Below are positions 1-14,895 of a DNA stretch of 23,790 nt, in pieces; positions within the stretch are counted from its first letter, which is position 1; every line of letters begins with the position of its first letter. The stretch comes from a virus. Location: the UHGV virus genome UHGV-0045959. One strand, 5' to 3'. Both the position numbers and the translations under genes were made by a program. The notes below the pieces were generated by a model. It did no database searches. It was not told where the DNA came from and was given only the letters and a program-made list of their open reading frames with translations.

Positions 1-52
1 TAAACCCTGTTTTCCTTGCCATAGACACCATCCCTGTCTTCCCCCCCCCCCC

Positions 53-1296: not shown

Positions 1297-1590
1297 TTAG
1301 CCAATCCTTTTCGCGGAGTGGTTGGACTCTGTTGACTCTGGCCCAATGTGCGCGAGAGCCGGTGCGATTTGTCCTGCGTCCGGCGCGGTTTTATCTGTCA
1401 TAAGCCATAGAGCATATTTTTGGAATGTGGGATGCATAGTGATTTTTAGCAAAGCTGTGCCACCGGGTTCAAAGTTTCCTCCTTCATATTTTTTAAGTGT
1501 GCTTAGCGGTAACTCTATGATTTCACAGAATTTTGATTGGCTTAGCCCTTCAGCCTCACGCAAGGCCTTAATCTTTTCGCTTAATTTCAT
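1297..1590 (-). CDS. C: immunity repressor (P2 C-like, 97 aa)
   Basis: Small HTH-like protein (LSQSKFCEIIELPLSTLKKYE) upstream of and co-oriented with int, divergent from cox; C-terminus QIAPALAHIGPE resembles the P2 C repressor. Confidence 0.8.
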   Translation of the reverse strand: MKLSEKIKALREAEGLSQSKFCEIIELPLSTLKKYEGGNFEPGGTALLKITMHPTFQKYALWLMTDKTAPDAGQIAPALAHIGPESTESNHSAKRIG

Positions 1591-1711: not shown

Positions 1712-1726
1712 ATGAGGGTACCATAT

Positions 1727-1999
1727 ATGGACGCTGAAAATTATGTGATTCAGTATCCGCTTGATGCGGTTCATGTGGATAAATTTGCTGATTTATTAGG
1801 GAAGCCAAAGACAGCCGTCAGTGAAATGGTGAAGGCAAATAAATTACCAATTATTGAATTGCGTGATCCTTGCAAACCGAAGGCTCGTGCCGGTGAAAAA
1901 TGGGTTTTCATTCCTGAGTTTAATCGCGCTGTACGTGAGGCGTTTTATAACCGACCGGTTGAACAGCGTGATGCATGGCTTTTGTGGATGGGGTTGTGA
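1727..1999 (+). CDS. cox: Cox-like excisionase / transcriptional regulator
   Basis: ORF 1712..1999; GAGGG Shine-Dalgarno 8 nt before the ATG at 1727 gives about 90 aa. First gene of the rightward early operon; C-terminus DAWLLWMGL as in P2 Cox. Confidence 0.75.
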   Translation: MDAENYVIQYPLDAVHVDKFADLLGKPKTAVSEMVKANKLPIIELRDPCKPKARAGEKWVFIPEFNRAVREAFYNRPVEQRDAWLLWMGL

Positions 2000-3483: not shown

Positions 3484-3755
3484 GTATTCGTATTGAAATT
3501 GGCGAACGTTATGTCGTTACCAGTGACAGCTTTCAGTTTATTCTCCACGAGAAAAAGAGAGCGGAAAGCGGTAAAAACGCCGGTCAGGAATGGCTGGCGG
3601 TGGTTGGTTATTACCCGAAATTAGGCCAGCTCGTTTCCGGCCTGATGCATCACGATATTCTGACCGGAAGCGCAAAATCTTTTGCTGATTTAAACGCGCA
3701 GGTTGAGCAACTCAGCAAGCGTTGTTCAGAGGCTTTTGGCTCATATGGCCGTTAA
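3480..3755 (+). CDS. hypothetical early protein (91 aa)
   Basis: ATGA overlap with the preceding ORF at 3480..3483; its 3' end overlaps the A start. Confidence 0.55.
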   Translation: MSIRIEIGERYVVTSDSFQFILHEKKRAESGKNAGQEWLAVVGYYPKLGQLVSGLMHHDILTGSAKSFADLNAQVEQLSKRCSEAFGSYGR

Positions 3756-6024
3756 AGCCTCCGGGCGTTTTGTCCCTCCGTCAGCATTTACCGCAGGCAC
3801 CGGTAAGGCGTTTACCGGTGCTTATGCATGGAACGCGCCACGCGAGGCTGTCGGGCGCGAAAGACCTCTTACACGTGACGAGATGCGTCAGGTGCAAGGT
3901 GTTTTATCCACGATTAACCGCCTGCCTTACTTTTTGCGCTCGCTGTTTACTTCACGCTATGACTACATCCGGCGCAATAAAAGCCCGGTGCACGGGTTTT
4001 ATTTCCTCACATCTACTTTTCAGCGTCGTTTATGGCCGCGCATTGAGCGTGTGAATCAGCGCCATGAAATGAACACCGACGCGTCGTTGCTGTTTCTGGC
4101 AGAGCGTGACCACTATGCGCGCCTGCCGGGAATGAATGACAAGGAGCTGAAAAAGTTTGCCGCCCGTATCTCATCGCAGCTTTTCATGATGTATGAGGAA
4201 CTCTGCGATGCATGGGTTGATGCGCATGGTGAAAAAGAATCGCTGTTTACGGATGAGGCGCAGGCTCACCTGTATGGTCATGTTGCTGGCGCTGCACGTG
4301 CTTTCAATATTTCCCCGCTCTACTGGAAAAAATACCGTAAAGGACAGATGACCACGAGGCAGGCATATTCTGCCATTGCCCGCCTGTTTAACGATGAGTG
4401 GTGGACTCATCAGCTTAAAGGCCAGCGTATGCGCTGGCATGAGGCGTTACTGATAGCTGTCGGGGAGGTCAATAAAGACCGTTCTCCTTATGCCAGTAAA
4501 CACGCCATTCGTGATGTGCGTGCGCGCCGCCAGGCAAATCTGGAATTTCTTAAATCGTGTGACCTTGAAAACAGGGAAACCGGCGAGCGCATCGACCTTA
4601 TCAGTAAGGTGATGGGCAGTATTTCTAATCCTGAAATTCGCCGGATGGAGCTGATGAACACCATTGCCGGTATTGAGCGTTACGCCGCCGCAGAGGGTGA
4701 TGTGGGGATGTTTATCACGCTGACCGCGCCGTCAAAGTATCACCCGACACGTCAGGTCGGAAAAGGCGAAAGTAAAACCGTTCAGCTTAATCACGGCTGG
4801 AACGATGAGGCATTTAATCCAAAGGATGCGCAGCGTTATCTCTGCCGTATCTGGAGCCTGATGCGCACGGCATTCAAGGATAATGATTTACAGGTCTACG
4901 GTTTGCGAGTCGTCGAGCCACACCACGACGGAACGCCGCACTGGCATATGATGCTTTTTTGTCATCCACGCCAGCGTAACCAGATTATCGAAATCATGCG
5001 TCGCTATGCGCTCAAAGAGGATGGCGACGAAAGAGGAGCCGCGCGAAACCGTTTTCAGGCAAAACACCTTAACCGGGGCGGTGCTGCGGGATATATCGCG
5101 AAATACATTTCAAAAAACATCGACGGCTATGCACTGGATGGTCAGCTCGATAACGACACCGGCAGGCCGCTGAAAGACACTGCAGCGGCTGTTACCGCAT
5201 GGGCGTCAACGTGGCGCATTCCGCAATTTAAAACGGTTGGCCTGCCGACAATGGGGGCTTACCGTGAACTACGCAAATTGCCTCGCGGCGTCAGCATTGC
5301 TGATGAGTTTGACGAGCGCGTCGAGGCTGCACGCGCCGCCGCAGACAGTGGTGATTTTGCGCTGTATATCAGCGCGCAGGGCGGGGCAAATGTCCCGCGC
5401 GATTGTCAGACTGTCAGGGTCGCCCGTAGTCTGTCGGATGACGTTAACGAGTACGAGGAAGAAGTCGAGAGAGTGGTCGGCATTTACGCGCCGCATCTCG
5501 GCGCGCGTCATATTCATATCACCAGAACGACGGACTGGCGCATTGTGCCGAAAGTTCCGGTCGTTGAGCCTTTGACTTTAAAAAGCGGCATCGCCGCGCC
5601 TCGGAGTCCTGTCAATAACTGTGGAAAGCTCACCGGTGGTGATACTTCGTTACCGGCTCCCACACCTTCTGAGCACGCCGCAGCAGTGCTAAATCTGGTT
5701 GATGACGGTGTTATCGAATGGAATGACCCGGAGGTCGTGAGGGCGCTCAGGGGTGCATTAAAACACGGTCGGAGAACGCCAGGTCGTCAGCAAAGAAACG
5801 GAAGCCCGTTAAAACCACATGAAATTGCACCATCGGCCAGACTGACCCGGTCTGAACGATTGCAAATCACCCGTATCCGTGTTGACCTTGCTCAAAACGG
5901 TATCAGGCCGCAGCGATGGGAGCTTGAGGCGTTAGTACGCGGTGCGATCGTCAATTACAATGAAAAGCAATTTTCATATCCTAGTGTAGATGAGTGGAGT
6001 GGGTTTTCTGGTTATTCAGAGTAA
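3745..6024 (+). CDS. A: rolling-circle replication initiator endonuclease (P2 A family)
   Basis: ORF 3703..6024; likely start at the in-frame ATG 3745 (MAVKASGRF) just before the upstream stop. Contains the HWHMMLF-type motif and GYIAKYISKN segment typical of P2 A-like initiators; about 760 aa. Confidence 0.9.
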   Translation: MAVKASGRFVPPSAFTAGTGKAFTGAYAWNAPREAVGRERPLTRDEMRQVQGVLSTINRLPYFLRSLFTSRYDYIRRNKSPVHGFYFLTSTFQRRLWPRIERVNQRHEMNTDASLLFLAERDHYARLPGMNDKELKKFAARISSQLFMMYEELCDAWVDAHGEKESLFTDEAQAHLYGHVAGAARAFNISPLYWKKYRKGQMTTRQAYSAIARLFNDEWWTHQLKGQRMRWHEALLIAVGEVNKDRSPYASKHAIRDVRARRQANLEFLKSCDLENRETGERIDLISKVMGSISNPEIRRMELMNTIAGIERYAAAEGDVGMFITLTAPSKYHPTRQVGKGESKTVQLNHGWNDEAFNPKDAQRYLCRIWSLMRTAFKDNDLQVYGLRVVEPHHDGTPHWHMMLFCHPRQRNQIIEIMRRYALKEDGDERGAARNRFQAKHLNRGGAAGYIAKYISKNIDGYALDGQLDNDTGRPLKDTAAAVTAWASTWRIPQFKTVGLPTMGAYRELRKLPRGVSIADEFDERVEAARAAADSGDFALYISAQGGANVPRDCQTVRVARSLSDDVNEYEEEVERVVGIYAPHLGARHIHITRTTDWRIVPKVPVVEPLTLKSGIAAPRSPVNNCGKLTGGDTSLPAPTPSEHAAAVLNLVDDGVIEWNDPEVVRALRGALKHGRRTPGRQQRNGSPLKPHEIAPSARLTRSERLQITRIRVDLAQNGIRPQRWELEALVRGAIVNYNEKQFSYPSVDEWSGFSGYSE

Positions 6025-6233: not shown

Positions 6234-6315
6234 NNNNNNNNNNNNNNNNNNNNNNNNNNNNNNNNNNNNNNNNNNNNNNNNNNNNNNNNNNNNNNNNNNN
6301 NNNNNNNNNNNNNNN
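6234..6315. other. assembly gap (run of N) inside the A-cos cargo island
   Basis: 82 consecutive N; the stop codon of the 827-aa gene lies 11 nt to its right. Confidence 0.99.
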
Positions 6316-6326
6316 TCTTTTACTGT

Positions 6327-8810
6327 TTAACGAGGGTTTCGCGTATAGGTTTCAACTATGTCTGATGCACGTAATTTACATGTGATCAATTGTTCTCTTA
6401 TAAATATCTCATCGTGTCGTTTATCACTTGTACAAATGGCCGTGATAAAACTGAGGATAGATGCTTTAAAACGTTCAAGATCATTTATGGTCATTATTCG
6501 AGACCCTTCGTTTAGTGTTGCGGCATATTCAGGCATATTAGAGTGATGTATCATTATAGGTGTGGCGGTAGCAGTTTGATCATACATGTTTCTGAACCAT
6601 GCACCCGACCCATTTAACTGATTGCAGTCATGCTTACTTATTCTTTCTGCGGTTGCTCCATTTTTGCATTCAATTACTAGATAATTGTTTTCTCCCATTG
6701 CCCATAAATTGTCAGGTCCTTTACCTGTATCATTTTCTGGCCGTTGGCTACGAAAACCGACCAAATATGCAACTTTTTCGATAGCATCTTCGAAGGGATT
6801 CGATGTGCCCTCGGAGAAAATAAGGTTTTCTATTATTGAATTAGTATGCACAACGACTTGATTGGCCGATTCAAAATTACTTCTGAGATAGGAGCTACAT
6901 TCCCTGGCCTGTTCAAGTGCCGCACCATTAAGTCTATTATATGTTACGCCGATTAGTGGTTTTAATACCCGATAGTTATCGTTTGATGCAGACTGAAGCA
7001 ATATCTGAGCTTCAGATTTGTCATATAAGTTTACATATTCCGCAGCATGTTCTTTTAGATAACCCTTATAAACTTTGTCAGCTGTACTACTATCATTTTT
7101 TAGAGTTAAAGCGGCTTGTTGAAACATATTTCGTGATGCTAAGTCATATGCCAATCTTTTATTTATAGTATGCTGGTCAATCTGCTTATTTTCCAATGTT
7201 AAGCCAGTCAATATACCTTTGCTTTTTGAGACCCAGTCAGAATTGCGTAACAGACAATAATCAAGAGCACCTTTGATTGAATCAATAGTTGTATCCGGCA
7301 GTATCGATACCAATTGCTGTGAAAGTTGAATTTGTGCTTTCGTTGCTGGAGAAAACCTTTCTAAGGAGGAGCCAAGGAAAACAGCGCCATTTAATGCTTT
7401 GCCAAGTAAGATCACTCCGCAGAAGTCGTCGCTTGATCTCACTCCTCGCCCCATTCCTTGTTCAATTTTCTGGATAATTTCATCTTTGGTTTTTTCGCTT
7501 CCAAGCAATAAGCTTTGTGAGACTTTATCTATTAGTCTACGAACGTCAGGAAGTCCATCTATTACTAATAGACGACATGCGGTATTTGGTAAATCAATAC
7601 CATCATATCTATTAACTAGGACTACTAAGCCAACATGTTGTGTCCTTAATTCTTGTACACCTTGATAAATTGTATTTTTATCTAATATTCTGTCTGCAAC
7701 ATCTTGCCAAAATCTAGTTCTGTAATCGGATGGTACAATTACAACAACATTATGTTTGGAGGATATCTCCTTGCACATAGCTTTGATATCTACATCAGAA
7801 AGACTAGGGTTTATAACCTGAGGCATTAGTATCATTCTATCACCAATATCACCAATTGTTTTTGGTGTTATCGGATTAGAGAGTGATTCATCCGTTATTC
7901 CGAAGTGGCTCGCTAGAATGGATTCATCGACAAGAGTAGCTGTCATGAATATTTTTCTTCTTGCGTTTGATAGGCTTGGGATCATTTGGATTGGTATGCA
8001 ATGAGGTGATATCTCTATTTTGGAAGCACTTACAACGCATTTCGATAATATTAGATTGTCTTTTATTAATGGCCATTTGAAACTCAAGTCATCATGGTCT
8101 TTATTTTCTAACAAGATTGTCATTATATCATTTATGCTTTCTTGCCATTTCCAAAATGGAACTCTCACATAAGCATTTCTATCGCCGGATTTTATCTCTA
8201 GTGTTTTTGCACCAGCTTGTGTCATTAGTGAATTTTCAAAAATTCTGAATAATTTATCATAGGCAGGGTTGTTTTTTTGAATGCTAATGGAGAATTGTTC
8301 TTCAATTGAAGAAAGGCAAGCGTGAGCATCGTCAATTATTATAGAACCTATTGGTATTCTTTGTCCATCATCTCCAACGCCAAATGCAGAACGTCCATTA
8401 ACCACTTTGAATATATTTGTAACTAAAATTTCTTTACCTGCAATAAATTTGGGGGACCTCTCATCTTGAGTTACAGGTATACCAAGTTGATTAGCCTCCA
8501 AAACCACTTGCTCAACTAGATAGTTGTCAGGAACAACATATACAGCGGGACCTTCTCCTTCATTTATACAGCTTTTAAGAATGATTAACCCAACTGAAGT
8601 TTTACCGCTTCCGGTATTCATTTTTATTACATTGGTTGGGCTTCTCCTTGCTTCATACCATTTTTCCCAGACCTCTGATTGCACATCTCGAGGGTATTGA
8701 AATTTGGTGTCTTTGCTCGGTAGAGCTGTAAATATATCTCGCGGTGGAATCGCTGTGTCGCTATTTACACTGGGCGAAAGCTTGGTTAAATCAAGGAAAA
8801 AACCAGACAT
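6327..8810 (-). CDS. SF2 helicase fused to a C-terminal PD-(D/E)xK-like nuclease module; candidate single-protein anti-phage defence gene
   Basis: 827-aa ORF with GAGGA Shine-Dalgarno 7 nt upstream of the ATG. Helicase motifs in order: I MNTGSGKTS (aa 64-72), II IIIDDAH (aa 157-163), III MTATL, V YDGIDLP, VI QGMGRGVR (aa 451-458). C-terminal GPD (aa 698-700) followed 14 residues later by VIECK (aa 712-716). Markedly AT-rich compared with flanking phage genes. Confidence 0.8.
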   Translation of the reverse strand: MSGFFLDLTKLSPSVNSDTAIPPRDIFTALPSKDTKFQYPRDVQSEVWEKWYEARRSPTNVIKMNTGSGKTSVGLIILKSCINEGEGPAVYVVPDNYLVEQVVLEANQLGIPVTQDERSPKFIAGKEILVTNIFKVVNGRSAFGVGDDGQRIPIGSIIIDDAHACLSSIEEQFSISIQKNNPAYDKLFRIFENSLMTQAGAKTLEIKSGDRNAYVRVPFWKWQESINDIMTILLENKDHDDLSFKWPLIKDNLILSKCVVSASKIEISPHCIPIQMIPSLSNARRKIFMTATLVDESILASHFGITDESLSNPITPKTIGDIGDRMILMPQVINPSLSDVDIKAMCKEISSKHNVVVIVPSDYRTRFWQDVADRILDKNTIYQGVQELRTQHVGLVVLVNRYDGIDLPNTACRLLVIDGLPDVRRLIDKVSQSLLLGSEKTKDEIIQKIEQGMGRGVRSSDDFCGVILLGKALNGAVFLGSSLERFSPATKAQIQLSQQLVSILPDTTIDSIKGALDYCLLRNSDWVSKSKGILTGLTLENKQIDQHTINKRLAYDLASRNMFQQAALTLKNDSSTADKVYKGYLKEHAAEYVNLYDKSEAQILLQSASNDNYRVLKPLIGVTYNRLNGAALEQARECSSYLRSNFESANQVVVHTNSIIENLIFSEGTSNPFEDAIEKVAYLVGFRSQRPENDTGKGPDNLWAMGENNYLVIECKNGATAERISKHDCNQLNGSGAWFRNMYDQTATATPIMIHHSNMPEYAATLNEGSRIMTINDLERFKASILSFITAICTSDKRHDEIFIREQLITCKLRASDIVETYTRNPR

Positions 8811-8870
8811 TTTTTATCCTCTTACAGGTACATTAGTTTAATTGTTAACGCAGAATTATCATTACCATAA

Positions 8871-8900
8871 CTTGCATTAAGTTGCATTACATTGCATTCA
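8871..8900. repeat. three tandem 10-bp repeats containing TTGCATT
   Basis: cTTGCATTaa / gTTGCATTac / aTTGCATTca at 8871..8900, 61-90 bp upstream of the 827-aa gene start and about 95 bp from cos. Confidence 0.6.
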
Positions 8901-8993
8901 TAAACGTTAGCTAGGGGCGAAGTCTGAGGTTTGATGGGCTATGGTGTCCCCTTTAATACGAGGTTGCATCAAAACCGCCCCATGAAGCGGGCG

Positions 8994-9012
8994 GGCGAGG
9001 CGGGGAAAGCAC
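8994..9012. other. cos: cos site (P2-type 19-nt cohesive-end sequence)
   Basis: GGCGAGGCGGGGAAAGCAC matches the P2 cohesive-end sequence as I recall it; located upstream of the Q/P packaging genes as in P2. Confidence 0.75.
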
Positions 9013-9154
9013 TGCGCGCTGGCGGTGGTGCTGATTTTATTTTTTCAGCGTCTCAGCGCGTCGTGACGGCGCTTAGTCTGTCCGTTGAGGCGTTGGTTTG
9101 CCTGCGGACTGTTTTGTGCGGTGGTGAGCGTGTGAGGGCGTGATGACGGGATGT

Positions 9155-9176
9155 AAAAAAGCCGCCCGCAGGCGGC
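9155..9176 (-). terminator. rho-independent terminator downstream of Q
   Basis: GC hairpin GCCGCC-cgca-GGCGGC (9161..9176) followed on the minus strand by a 6-nt T run (9155..9160), 6 nt past the Q stop. Confidence 0.65.
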
Positions 9177-9181
9177 GATGT

Positions 9182-10216
9182 TCAGCCGTTGTCAGTGTCC
9201 AGTGAGTAGTTTTTAAAGCGGATGACCTCCTGACCGAGCCAGCCGTTTATCTCGCGGATCCTGTCCTGTAGCGGGATAAGCTCATTGCGGACAAAGACCT
9301 TTGCCACTTTCTCAATATCTCCCAGTGACCCGACGTTCTCCGGCTTGCCGCCCATCAACTGAAAGGGGATGCGGTGCGCGTCCAGCAGGTCAGCGGCGCT
9401 GGCTTTTTTGATATTAAAAAAATCGTCCTTCGTTGCCACTTCACTGAGCGGGATAATTTTAATGCCGTCAGCTTTCCCCTGCGGGGCATAGAGAAACAGA
9501 TTTTTAAAGTTGTTGCGGCCTTTCGACTTAACCATGTTTTCGCGAAGCATTTCGATATCGTTGCGGTCCTGCACGGCATCGGTGACGTACATGATATATC
9601 CGGCATGAGCGCCGTTTTCGTAATACTTGCGGCGGAACAGCGTGGCTGACTCATTCAGCCAGGCAGAGTTAAGGGCGCTCAGATATTCTGGCAGGCCGTA
9701 CAGCTCCTGATTGATATCCGGCTCCAGCAGGTGAAACACGGAGCCGGGCGTGAAAGGTGTCGGCTCGTTGAAGGACGGCACCCACCAGTAAACATCCTCC
9801 TCCACGCCACGACGGGTATATTTTGCCGGTGAGGTTTCCAGTCTGATGACCTTACCGGTGGTGCTGTAACGCTTTTCCAGAAACGCATTACCGAACACCA
9901 GAAAATCCAGCACAAAGCGGCTGAAATCCTGCTGGGAAAGCCACGGATGCGGGATAAATGTTGAGGCCAGAATATTACGTTTGACGTAAATCGGTGAGCT
10001 GTGATGCACGGCAGCACGCAGGCTTTTTGCCAGACCGGTAAAGCTGACCGGTGGTTCATACCATCTGCCGTTACTGATGCACTCGACGTAATCCAGAATG
10101 TCACGGCGGTCGAGTACCGGTACCGGCTCGCCAAAGGTGAATGCTTCCATTTTCGGGGCGCTGGCGGTCATTTTTTTGGCCGCAGGTTGCGGTGTTTTCC
10201 CTTTTTTCTTGCTCAT
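9182..10216 (-). CDS. Q: portal protein (gpQ)
   Basis: 344 aa, identical in size to P2 gpQ; first gene clockwise of cos, co-oriented with the terminase; start overlaps the P stop by 1 nt. Confidence 0.9.
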   Translation of the reverse strand: MSKKKGKTPQPAAKKMTASAPKMEAFTFGEPVPVLDRRDILDYVECISNGRWYEPPVSFTGLAKSLRAAVHHSSPIYVKRNILASTFIPHPWLSQQDFSRFVLDFLVFGNAFLEKRYSTTGKVIRLETSPAKYTRRGVEEDVYWWVPSFNEPTPFTPGSVFHLLEPDINQELYGLPEYLSALNSAWLNESATLFRRKYYENGAHAGYIMYVTDAVQDRNDIEMLRENMVKSKGRNNFKNLFLYAPQGKADGIKIIPLSEVATKDDFFNIKKASAADLLDAHRIPFQLMGGKPENVGSLGDIEKVAKVFVRNELIPLQDRIREINGWLGQEVIRFKNYSLDTDNG

Positions 10217-11988
10217 CAGTAAAACTCCAGAATGGTGGATGTCAGCGGGGTGCTGATACCGGCGGTGAGTGGCTCATTTAACAGGGCGTGCATGGTCGCC
10301 CAGGCGAGGTCGGCGTGGCTGGCTTCCTCGCTGCGGCTGGCCTCATACGTGGCGCTGCGTCCGCTGCTGGTCATGGTCTTGCGGATAGCCATAAACGAGC
10401 TGGTGATGTCGGTGGCGCTGACGTCATATTCCAGACAGCCACGGCGGATGACGTCTTTTGCCTTGAGCACCATTGCGGTTTTCATTTCCGGTGTGTAGCG
10501 GATATCGCGCGCGGCGGGATAGAACGAGCGCACGAGCTGGAACACGCCGACACCGAGGCCGGTGGCATCAATACCGATGTATTCGACGTTGTATTTTTCG
10601 GTGAGTTTGCGGATGGATTCCGCCTGAGTGGCAAAGTCCATGCCTTTCCACTGGTGACGCTCAAGTATTCTGAATTTGCCACCGGCCACCACCGGCGGTG
10701 CCAGTACCACGCATCCGGCGCTGTCGCCACGGTGTGACGGGTCGTAACCAATCCATACCGGGCGGGAGCCGAACGGATTCGCGGCAAACGGCGCATAGTC
10801 TTCCCATTCTTCCAGCGTGTCGACCATGCAGCGTTGCAGCTCCTCGAACGGGAACACCGACGCCTTGTCGTCAACAAATTCACACATGAACAGGTTTTTA
10901 AAATCGTCGGCGCTGTTTTCACGTTTGAGCTGCTCAATGTCGAACAGCGTGCAGCCGCCTTTCAGCGCGTCCTCAATGGTGACAATCTGCCGCCACTGGC
11001 CGTCTGCACAGAGAAGCCCACCGGCAAGGGCGTTATGACTGACGTCGATTTCCACGCGTTCGGCGGCGCTGGCGCGTCCCCGGTTGAACAGTTCACCCGA
11101 CCAGAACGGGTAGGCGTCGTGCGCCAGCGTGGACGGGGTGGAGAAATAGGTCGAACGCAGGTGACTCTGTGAGGCCATACCTGATGCCACCTTACGCAGT
11201 ACCTGAAAATTCGGGATCCAGAAAATCTCGTCGACGTACAGGTCGCCGTTATGGCTCTGCGCGGTGTTGGAGTTGGTGCCGAGAAAAATCAGTTTTGCGC
11301 CGTTATTGCCCAGGACAATCGGGTCACCGGTCAGGTCAACGTCAACCAGCCGGGCAAAGGCGATGATGTATTCGCGGAACACATACGCCTGCGTTTTACT
11401 GGCCGACAGAAAAATCTGGTTATGACCGGTTTTCAGGGCGCGCAGCAGCGCCTCGCGGGAAAAATAAAACGTCGCGCCAATCTGGCGGGATTTCAGGATA
11501 TCGCGGATGCGGTGCTCAAGCCCGGCGCGATACCAGTGCAACTGATATTCGAAAGACTGCTCAAAGAAAATCTGCTCCAGCTTTTCGATGGCCTCGTCAC
11601 TGAAAAAATTCTTTTTCGGTTTGCGCCGCCCGCCTTTGTTGCGGTTAGCGACGTTCGGATTAAGGTCTGCCTCGTTGCCGGTCTGACTGTAACGGTTGAC
11701 CCGTGCCAGTCGTTCAATCTGGCGTCCCAGCAGGTCAATTTCCTTGAAGTCACCGCCGGTTTTCTGCGGTTTGATGATGAGCTGGGTCAGCCGCGCTTCC
11801 AGACTCATTTCGACACGGCTGATGGGGGCAACGCTGTCCCAGCCGTCGCGCTGTTTCCAGCTCTGCACCGTCGGGCGTTTCATCTGCAACATGGCGGCAA
11901 TCTGCGGCACGGAAAATCCCTGCCAGTACAGCAGCGCCGCCTGACGACGCGGGTCGTGTAAAAGAGTGGTGTCTGTGGTGATGGTCAT
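10216..11988 (-). CDS. P: terminase large subunit (gpP)
   Basis: ORF 10216..12018; likely start at MTITTDTTLL (11988), about 590 aa as in P2 gpP. Confidence 0.9.
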   Translation of the reverse strand: MTITTDTTLLHDPRRQAALLYWQGFSVPQIAAMLQMKRPTVQSWKQRDGWDSVAPISRVEMSLEARLTQLIIKPQKTGGDFKEIDLLGRQIERLARVNRYSQTGNEADLNPNVANRNKGGRRKPKKNFFSDEAIEKLEQIFFEQSFEYQLHWYRAGLEHRIRDILKSRQIGATFYFSREALLRALKTGHNQIFLSASKTQAYVFREYIIAFARLVDVDLTGDPIVLGNNGAKLIFLGTNSNTAQSHNGDLYVDEIFWIPNFQVLRKVASGMASQSHLRSTYFSTPSTLAHDAYPFWSGELFNRGRASAAERVEIDVSHNALAGGLLCADGQWRQIVTIEDALKGGCTLFDIEQLKRENSADDFKNLFMCEFVDDKASVFPFEELQRCMVDTLEEWEDYAPFAANPFGSRPVWIGYDPSHRGDSAGCVVLAPPVVAGGKFRILERHQWKGMDFATQAESIRKLTEKYNVEYIGIDATGLGVGVFQLVRSFYPAARDIRYTPEMKTAMVLKAKDVIRRGCLEYDVSATDITSSFMAIRKTMTSSGRSATYEASRSEEASHADLAWATMHALLNEPLTAGISTPLTSTILEFY

Positions 11989-12161
11989 GAATACCTCGCC
12001 GTGATGAATACACGGCAAGGCTACTGAGTCGCGCCCCGCGATTCGCTAAGGTGCTGTTGTGTCAGTGATAAGCCATCCGGGACTGATGGCGGAGGATGCG
12101 CATCGTCGGGAAACTGATGCCGACATGTGACTCCTCTAATCACTATTCAGGACTCCTGACA
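11989..12161. promoter_or_regulatory. divergent late-promoter region between P and O
   Basis: 173-bp intergenic region between divergently transcribed P and O, where P2 has its Ogr-dependent late promoters. Small inverted repeat CCGTG-n7-CACGG at 11999..12015. No consensus element confirmed. Confidence 0.4.
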
Positions 12162-14151: not shown

Positions 14152-14895
14152 ATGACGAGTCCCGCACAGCGCCACATGATGCGGGTCTCGGCAGCGATGA
14201 CCGCGCAGCGGGAAGCCGCCCCGCTGCGACATGCAACTGTCTATGAGCAGATGCTGGTTAAGCTCGCCGCAGATCAGCGCACACTGAAAGCGATTTATTC
14301 AAAAGAGCTGAAGGCCGCGAAAAAACGCGAACTGCTGCCGTTCTGGTTGCCGTGGGTGAACGGCGTGCTGGAGCAGGGCAAAGGTGCACAGGATGACATT
14401 CTGATGACGGTCATGCTGTGGCGTCTGGATACCGGCGATATTGCCGGTGCGCTGGAGATTGCCCGTTATGCCCTGAAGTACGGTCTGACCATGCCGGGTA
14501 AACACCGCCGCACTCCGCCGTACATGTTCACCGAGGAGGTGGCGCTTGCGGCCATACGCGCTCACGCTGCCGGTGAATCCGTGGATACCCGCCTGCTGAC
14601 GGAGACCCTTGAACTGACCGCCACGGCTGACATGCCTGATGAAGTGCGCGCAAAGCTGCACAAAATCACCGGTCTGTTTCTGCGTGACGGTGGTGATGCC
14701 GCCGGTGCGCTGGCTCACCTGCAACGTGCGACCCGGCTCGACTGTCAGGCAGGCGTCAAAAAAGAGATTGAACGACTGGAGCGGGAGCTGAAACCGAAGC
14801 CGGAGCAGCAACCCAAAGCGGCCACCCGTGCCACGCGTAAGACCCGGAGCGTGACACCGGCAAAACGTGGACGCCCGAAAAAGAAAGCCAGTTAA
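14152..14895 (+). CDS. M: terminase small (endonuclease) subunit (gpM)
   Basis: 247 aa, same size and position as P2 gpM; basic Lys/Arg-rich C-terminal tail. Confidence 0.88.
   Translation: MTSPAQRHMMRVSAAMTAQREAAPLRHATVYEQMLVKLAADQRTLKAIYSKELKAAKKRELLPFWLPWVNGVLEQGKGAQDDILMTVMLWRLDTGDIAGALEIARYALKYGLTMPGKHRRTPPYMFTEEVALAAIRAHAAGESVDTRLLTETLELTATADMPDEVRAKLHKITGLFLRDGGDAAGALAHLQRATRLDCQAGVKKEIERLERELKPKPEQQPKAATRATRKTRSVTPAKRGRPKKKAS

Follow-up and report, generated by a model that had tools for sequence, protein, structure and literature searches.

Three TTGCATT words, each beginning exactly 10 bp after the one before, lie between the cohesive-end site (cos) and a helicase gene in the P2-like prophage studied here, a stretch of 23,790 nucleotides referred to below as the window. 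Do these words serve the neighbouring cargo gene, as regulatory sites in its leader, or do they belong to cos and the packaging of DNA? Both readings had been offered in the original prediction. From a comparison of cos regions we consider it probable that the triple is a copy of a TGCAT array conserved in P2-family cos regions, and that it would act as the distal part of a two-part recognition signal for terminase.

The repeat array and its genomic setting

The window is a P2-like prophage. A repressor gene (1297-1590, minus strand), a Cox-type gene (1712-1999, plus strand) and replication gene A (3703-6024) are followed by one large ORF on the minus strand (6327-8810; ATG at 8810-8808), which has a Shine-Dalgarno sequence, AAGAGGA (8817..8823, minus strand), 6 nt before the ATG at 8810. 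The product is an 827-residue helicase of the DEAD/ResIII type (Pfam ResIII, DEAD, Helicase_C_2), with an N-terminus (MSGF...) that is conserved in homologues, and it is a full-length match (1054.6 bits) to PDC-S28, a candidate defence family of PADLOC. The gene occupies the A-to-cos hotspot of P2-like phages, known as a defence hotspot from Rousset et al. (PMC9122126), and lies next to the cos element without belonging to it. Masked runs of N are found at 53-112 and 6234-6315, the second of them between the end of gene A (6024) and the helicase stop codon (6327), at the other edge of the cargo.

The cleavage region of cos is marked by the 19-nt cohesive end GGCGAGGCGGGGAAAGCAC at 8994..9012 (plus strand), an exact match that is unique in the window and identical to the cosL/cosR annotation of P2 (NC_001895). 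As in P2-family cos regions, the left-end arm of cos carries the portal and large terminase genes, here a gpQ-type gene at 9182..10216 (minus strand; PF04860) and a gpP-type gene at 10216..12018 (minus strand; Terminase_6N/6C, Terminase_5, HTH_23). A gpM-type gene for the small terminase subunit follows at 14152..14895 (plus strand; PF05944, E 1e-47). Within the cos core, a G+C-rich inverted repeat with a T run (CCGCCCGCTTCATGGGGCGG TTTT; 8975..8994) is terminator-like on the minus strand.

The array itself, at 8871-8900, reads ACTTGCATTA AGTTGCATTA CATTGCATTC. Exact matches to TTGCATT start at 8872, 8882 and 8892 on the plus strand, with cores at 8872-8878, 8882-8888 and 8892-8898, and Tandem Repeats Finder reports a period of 10 with 3.1 copies at 8868-8898. 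Expressed as distances from the cos nick, TGCAT starts at -121, -111 and -101, and again at -29. This last word is part of a fourth TTGCAT, at 8964..8969 on the plus strand and -30 from the nick, which had escaped the original prediction and forms the left edge of the 55-bp core of P2/P4 cos homology (~8965-9019, or about -29 to +26) that window, P2 and P4 have in common. The three 10-bp units (8871..8900, plus strand) would thus be the distal part of an extended cos region, parted from the core by a spacer at 8899..8963.

TTGCATT is not enriched in the window as a whole (6 found, 6.35 expected). It is, on the other hand, the only 7-mer free of N that recurs there three times at a period of 8-12, and neither 400 simulated windows nor 20,000 simulated leaders of 183 nt with matched dinucleotide make-up contained such a phased triple. 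The non-random feature of the array is its phasing, not the abundance of the heptamer. Exact search, Tandem Repeats Finder and simulations together bear out the three 10-bp repeats of the original prediction, and the coordinates place them, as it had stated, 61-90 nt upstream of the cargo ATG. No covariance model of Rfam matched in 8600-9300 at E values up to 1. An otherwise identical prophage (IMGVR_UViG_2698536401_000016) carries four TTGCATT units through the 10-bp expansion ACTTGCATTAAGTTGCATTAAGTTGCATTACATTGCATTC; its three cos-proximal words are in the same register to the nick, and its ATG is 10 bp more distant.

TGCAT words at a fixed distance from the cos nick

A search of IMG/VR with the exact triple TTGCATT pattern gave 55 matches, and the related ones were found only in P2-like loci with this helicase; the remainder came from giant viruses and other contigs and are simple tandem arrays of no relation. 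The 70 complete E. coli genomes that have leader and helicase are all at least 99% identical and uninformative on conservation. BLAST homology to other P2-like phages begins at query position 266, which is position 8965, and since the leader aligned with isolated phages only from there rightwards, the array had looked cargo-specific. That view was given up: words of 5 bp are invisible to BLAST, and flanks anchored at the nick reversed it.

For these flanks, IMG/VR stretches with the exact 19-mer cohesive end were taken and their left flanks aligned on the nick. Among 102 distinct flanks, TGCAT occurs at -101 +/-1 in 88, at -111 +/-1 in 80, at -120 to -124 in 75 and at -29 in 97, with a background of 0.6 occurrences per position. 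The start of the -101 word is at -101 itself in 69 flanks, at -102 in 7 and at -100 in 12. The third word is less fixed (-124/-123 in 42 flanks, -121/-120 in 25), and a few flanks have degenerate words. Orientation is kept as well, the reverse-complement form ATGCA being found at -102 and -112 in only 4 and 2 flanks, respectively.

The 102 flanks collapse to 69 clusters with unrelated sequence on the cargo side, that is, 69 cargo contexts. Exact TGCAT is present at -101 in 57/69, at -111 in 55/69, at -12x in 41/69 and at -29 in 64/69 of these contexts; when one mismatch is allowed the counts rise to 66/69, 67/69, 58/69 and 69/69. Control positions shifted by -150 to +250 bp in the same 69 contexts gave 0-1 exact matches, and two at the wider -12x site with a shift of +40. 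Mean pairwise identity per column amounts to 0.27 to the left of -130, 0.44 in -125..-96, 0.34 in -95..-40 and 0.80 in -39..0. With conserved words at either end of a spacer of low identity, it is the short words and their distance to the nick that are kept within otherwise variable DNA. The spacer between the -101 and -29 words measures 72 +/-1 bp and is free in sequence, and a fixed length with a free sequence suggests a loop or wrap. Many flanks of the P2/186 type (186 and PSP3 among them) have a semi-conserved module in the spacer at -90 to -40, with the palindrome GCCAGAGCTGGCGCGGATCC...GGTCATGCAACTGCAT; ATGCA at -36 there forms an inverted pair with the TGCAT at -29. This palindromic module is missing from the window, P2 and P4, whose spacers are nevertheless of equal length.

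The orientation of the neighbouring gene, scored by the nearest ORF of at least 100 aa, makes no difference to the array: the pair of words at -101 and -111 is present in 30/32 P2-type flanks where that ORF runs towards cos, in 29/31 where it runs away from cos, and in 16/16 P4-type flanks, where it comes after the psu stop codon. Cargo ORFs that run towards cos typically end at -123 to -160, just left of the array. Cargo start codons lie anywhere from about -95 to beyond -500 from the nick, mostly at -180 to -320, and the array is fixed to the nick and not to the start codon. The suggestion that the repeats had arrived with the cargo or regulate it specifically therefore finds no support, the words being present in 66-67/69 cargo contexts with either gene orientation. 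The comparison across P2-like cos regions had been proposed with the original prediction, and it found the repeats conserved regardless of cargo, the outcome named there as speaking against the cargo-linked readings.

Closely related helicases give a finer view of the array. Three P2-like contigs of IMG/VR (L063-L065, helicases 89-90% identical) and a Logan contig with a helicase 82% identical in the P2 hotspot (L146) keep the ATGCAA cores at 10-bp spacing, apart from single-base changes in two cores of L065, and differ in the 3-4-nt spacers between the cores and in the flanks. Kept cores among divergent spacers show selection on the words. Helicases that are 77-80% identical also occur outside P2-like phages, namely in a P4-like satellite downstream of the primase gene (L150-L152), in a lambdoid prophage between a P-type replication gene and the RusA/Q region (L153-L154) and in a Pectobacterium integrase island (L147-L149), and no ATGCAA repeats were found upstream of the gene in any of these three settings. 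Their absence there speaks against the proposal that the repeats are binding sites for a regulator of the cargo. Some 45 more distant homologues (at most 56% identity), from a search of genome contigs with a helicase alignment, had no repeats either and are too distant for a promoter comparison.

Taken by itself, the PDC-S28-type helicase (77-82% identical) occurs as a lone gene in four types of mobile element: the P2 hotspot, the integrase island, the P4-like satellite and the lambdoid prophage. Even in cyanobacteria, Pseudomonas and Legionella the members of the family are still 52-56% identical, an unusual degree of conservation for a defence candidate.

Reference genomes and the satellite P4

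The same words are found in the reference genomes. TGCAT starts at -123, -111, -101 and -29 in P2; at -124, -111, -101 and -29 in 186, after the annotated terminator t95b; at -120, -111, -101 and -29 in PSP3; and at -129, -110, -100 and -29 in Ralstonia phage RSA1. In the satellite P4 the words start at -124, -111, -101 and -29, at the right end of the genome and downstream of psu, and P4's own variable locus, the hotspot with gop, beta and cII, is on the other side of cos from the array. The occurrence of TGCAT words in P2, 186, PSP3, P4 and RSA1 lends comparative support to the option that the repeats are sites for a packaging factor.

Anchored at the nick, the window and P4 are identical at a fraction of 0.62 in -125..-96, 0.23 in -95..-30 and 0.86 in -29..0, and beyond the nick at 1.00 in 0..19 (the cohesive end) and 0.75 in 19..27. 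P4 relies on the terminase of P2 and is described as having only the core cos signal in common with it (PMC9122126), so that the array in P4 is hard to explain except as part of the cos signal. The window element is an ordinary member of a feature found in the P2, P4 and 186 reference genomes, the putative terminase-recognition repeats beside cos.

The P4 copy has a peculiarity of its own. At 11495-11547 of P4 (NC_001609) the first two TGCAT words form part of a perfect hairpin with a 12-bp stem (AAGCCATGCATC/GGTGCATGGCTT; -20.1 kcal/mol, z -3.55), which stands directly behind psu and has a T-rich run after it. This hairpin may be the terminator of the sid-delta-psu genes as well as part of cos, a local second use.

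Co-variation of distal and proximal words

In the P2-family phages phiCTX (of Pseudomonas) and Smp131 (of Stenotrophomonas) the nick-proximal word at about -28/-29 is TGCAG where the window has TGCAT, and no TGCAT was found in the cos arms of either. In phiCTX, words of the GCAG type lie at about -108, -98, -82, -36 and -27, the distal ones being of the CGCAGG type, and in Smp131 distal CGCAGG-type words lie at -140, -128, -111 and -101. Distinct IMG/VR flanks of the phiCTX/Smp131 type (L296, L306, L311 and others) have GCAG at both -111 +/-2 and -101 +/-2 in 16/16 cases, and a nick-proximal GCAG word at -28/-29, often with another at -37. The search pattern, GTGCAGAAAAAGNNNNNTAT, is unspecific; only 18 of its loci are P2-type cos, and these were used after filtering. 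The 16 flanks are closely related, so that perhaps four independent lineages underlie the co-variation. Distal and proximal words change together, from TGCAT to GCAG, which fits a single protein that reads both.

Repeats R4-R6 are annotated across cos in the phiCTX record (NC_003278), so repeats at cos have already been noticed in that phage. The right end of Haemophilus phage HP1 has CACGGAAA(A/T) four times within about 125 bp of the genome end, with one copy in the variant form CACGTAAAA; the cos of HP1 is too different to be aligned with P2-type cos.

Alternative explanations

The array could instead be the promoter or operator of the cargo helicase, made of activator or repressor sites or of repeated -35-like hexamers, a reading that we consider unlikely. 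It draws on the position of the array 61-90 nt upstream of the helicase ATG and on two terminator-like hairpins on the minus strand, at 9176-9161 and 8994-8975, which lie between the helicase and the late Q-P operon and cut the gene off from it, so that the helicase must have its own promoter within 8811 to about 8970. The room for this promoter is the 61 bp between array and ATG, unless it overlaps the array. Hexamers resembling a -10 (TATGGT, GGTAAT, GATAAT) follow the array in the window and in its relatives, and P2 offers a precedent in the same place of the genome, where the adjacent gene points away from cos: the old-tin mRNA is annotated to begin at -149 and -151 relative to the nick, 26-28 nt beyond the cos-distal word, and the likely old-tin -35 hexamer, TTGAAT, overlaps that word. 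A transcriptional role therefore exists in at least one phage.

A consensus sigma-70 scan of 8600-9250, however, found no promoter, and -35 hexamers placed on the repeats match poorly. The best-scoring candidate of a crude position-weight scan, at 8835..8862 on the minus strand (-35 ATGATA at 8862..8857, 16-nt spacer, -10 TAAACT at 8840..8835, predicted start at about 8828), is weak at 7.6 bits, on a scale where the mapped P2 old promoter scores 6.5-7.1 bits. It differs from the P2 old-tin promoter in lying entirely between array and ATG, and window hexamers at the positions equivalent to old-tin have no workable promoter spacing. Weak candidates of this kind are not consistently conserved. 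In E. coli strain 219 (NZ_CP020514.1) the IS21-family element ISEc12 (istA/istB) is inserted in the helicase leader, with a junction at about 8831 between the candidate -10 hexamer and the Shine-Dalgarno sequence, and parts the helicase from the array and any promoter there.

Comparative data also contradict a promoter or operator specific to the cargo. The array keeps its distance to cos also in those P2-type flanks, about half of them, where the adjacent gene has its end and not its start at the array, and in P4 it is downstream of psu; its position is tied to the nick and not to a start codon; and it is absent upstream of the 77-80% identical helicases elsewhere and of the roughly 45 distant homologues. 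TTGCATT is likewise absent from the Pe/Pc control region of this phage, and readings of the words as sites for a response regulator, Ada or Ogr, as Cox boxes or as C operators were rejected on this ground and for want of any match to the word. Boxes for response regulators of the OmpR/PhoB type, such as pho boxes, are direct repeats at about one helical turn near a -10-like hexamer; here period and word are not known to match any such box, and it is to cos that the element is bound in position, with no tie to a promoter. What survives of the promoter elements in the original prediction is a possible overlap, as in P2, and not a cargo-specific element. The cargo promoter is probably adjacent to the array or, like the mapped P2 old promoter, shares sequence with it, and the array may serve in addition as DNA upstream of the promoter, a role that would come second to its link with cos.

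Alternatively, the TGCAT words could be sites for a host architectural protein that bends the arm, as IHF does in lambda, and not for terminase. Fixed spacing with a spacer of free sequence would fit any bending or looping protein, and IHF is used by lambda cosB. We nevertheless regard this as improbable: there is no IHF consensus (WATCAANNNNTTR) in 8811-8993, the distal words change with the -29 word of the core between phage lineages (TGCAT against GCAG), and RSA1 keeps TGCAT though Ralstonia is far from E. coli, so that the word tracks the phage better than the host. P2 maturation is reported to have been reconstituted in vitro with phage ter components.

It is very unlikely that the array protects cos from read-through transcription as a terminator or insulator. 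The P4 version is indeed a strong hairpin with a T-rich run after psu, and TGCA is palindromic, so that the words can pair with one another, but the P2 version folds no better than shuffled sequences (z -1.01), nor does 8860-8912 of the window on either strand (z +0.64 and +1.46). A terminator scan of 8860-8912 found none, and what is conserved is an oriented word, with no conserved stem.

That the words are short homology or recognition sites for exchange of hotspot cargo, kept as a recombination junction, is hardly credible, for even with cargo ORFs towards cos ending at -123 to -160, immediately left of the array, and with the speculation of Rousset et al. that cos ends drive exchange (PMC9122126), a junction explains the onset of variation, not the survival of 5-bp words in unconserved DNA, and leaves the +/-1 distance to the nick and the co-variation with the -29 word unexplained.

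A proposed two-part signal for terminase

The array is thus best read as the distal part of a cos signal. On the right-end arm, some 100-125 bp away from the nick, and joined by a spacer of fixed length and free sequence to the -29 word, it would together with that word form the recognition signal for a P2-type terminase. Binding would fall to the small subunit gpM, to the N-terminal helix-turn-helix of gpP, or to both. Several protomers may sit on one face of the DNA at 10-bp intervals, with a further site at -29, and the bound protomers would bend or wrap the arm so that the nuclease is positioned on the 19-bp cleavage region. The gpM-type small terminase is a candidate binder of the TGCAT words, and the large terminase gpP is an alternative candidate that may itself read DNA sequence in this family. 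The large terminase of the window (10216-12018, minus strand) has an N-terminal helix-turn-helix at residues ~22-79 (Terminase_5, HTH_23). No solved structures related to gpM or gpP were found. Against the two-part signal counts the location of the array on the arm opposite to the terminase and portal genes.

In lambda, cosB consists of the gpNu1-binding sites R3, R2 and R1 and an IHF site, and the small terminase subunit anchors the holoenzyme. The lambda R sites are about 16 bp long, include an inverted pair, flank the IHF site and lie on the arm with the terminase genes. The likeness is that short repeated words stand beside the nicking site, tens to ~150 bp away. In contrast to lambda, the words of the window are of 5-7 bp, direct and 10 bp apart, they lie on the arm opposite to Q and P, there is no IHF consensus, and the two arrays have no sequence similarity. 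We infer that the array may be a functional counterpart of lambda cosB. Within the P2 family, phiCTX carries repeated words both beside the nick and along the right-end arm; its word is GCAGR where the window has TGCAT, and R4-R6 are known here from the annotation of the record.

In four papers that follow Ziermann & Calendar 1990, the cos signal of P2 and P4 is given as a 55-bp core (PMC9122126, PMC3931495, PMC5694545, PMC9594776). This core is at the same locus as the cos of the window and has the identical 19-nt cohesive end, and its left edge is the TGCAT at -29, whereas the triple of the window lies 72-92 bp outside it. Flanking DNA beyond the 55-bp core may improve transduction of P2/P4 cosmids (PMC9594776). 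Neither these papers nor text searches on TGCAT at cos and on binding by gpM or gpP gave a description of the array, and the P2 GenBank record is without an annotation for it; it may have been described elsewhere, for instance in the primary cos paper of 1990.

Implications

The repeats say nothing specific on the regulation of the PDC-S28 helicase, and a false lead is thereby removed. In its place stands a sharper map of P2/P4 cos, with a core, a spacer constrained in length and a phased array. The defence hotspot described by Rousset et al. gains a precise limit towards cos: its real boundary is the array, about -125 to -130 from the nick, and cargo sequence begins directly left of it. The map also gives a design rule, cheap to test, for cosmids and transducing particles of P2/P4, namely about 130 bp of right arm with the 72-bp spacing kept. 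The co-variation of proximal and distal words is a handle on terminase specificity in a phage family that is without a structure of its terminase or of a complex with DNA.

More tentatively, and as a possibility that we would not call likely, the words at -101, -111 and -12x with the word at -29 could constitute a not-yet-described distal 'cosB' for P2-family terminases, held at a fixed 72 bp and co-evolved from the enterobacterial P2 to the Pseudomonas phage phiCTX. A distal cosB, if true, would set the real cos-side boundary of the P2 defence hotspot and would explain why the 55-bp core alone does not give P2/P4 cosmids a good yield. Since cargo promoters would then lie on or against the array, binding of terminase late in infection could silence the defence gene of the prophage.
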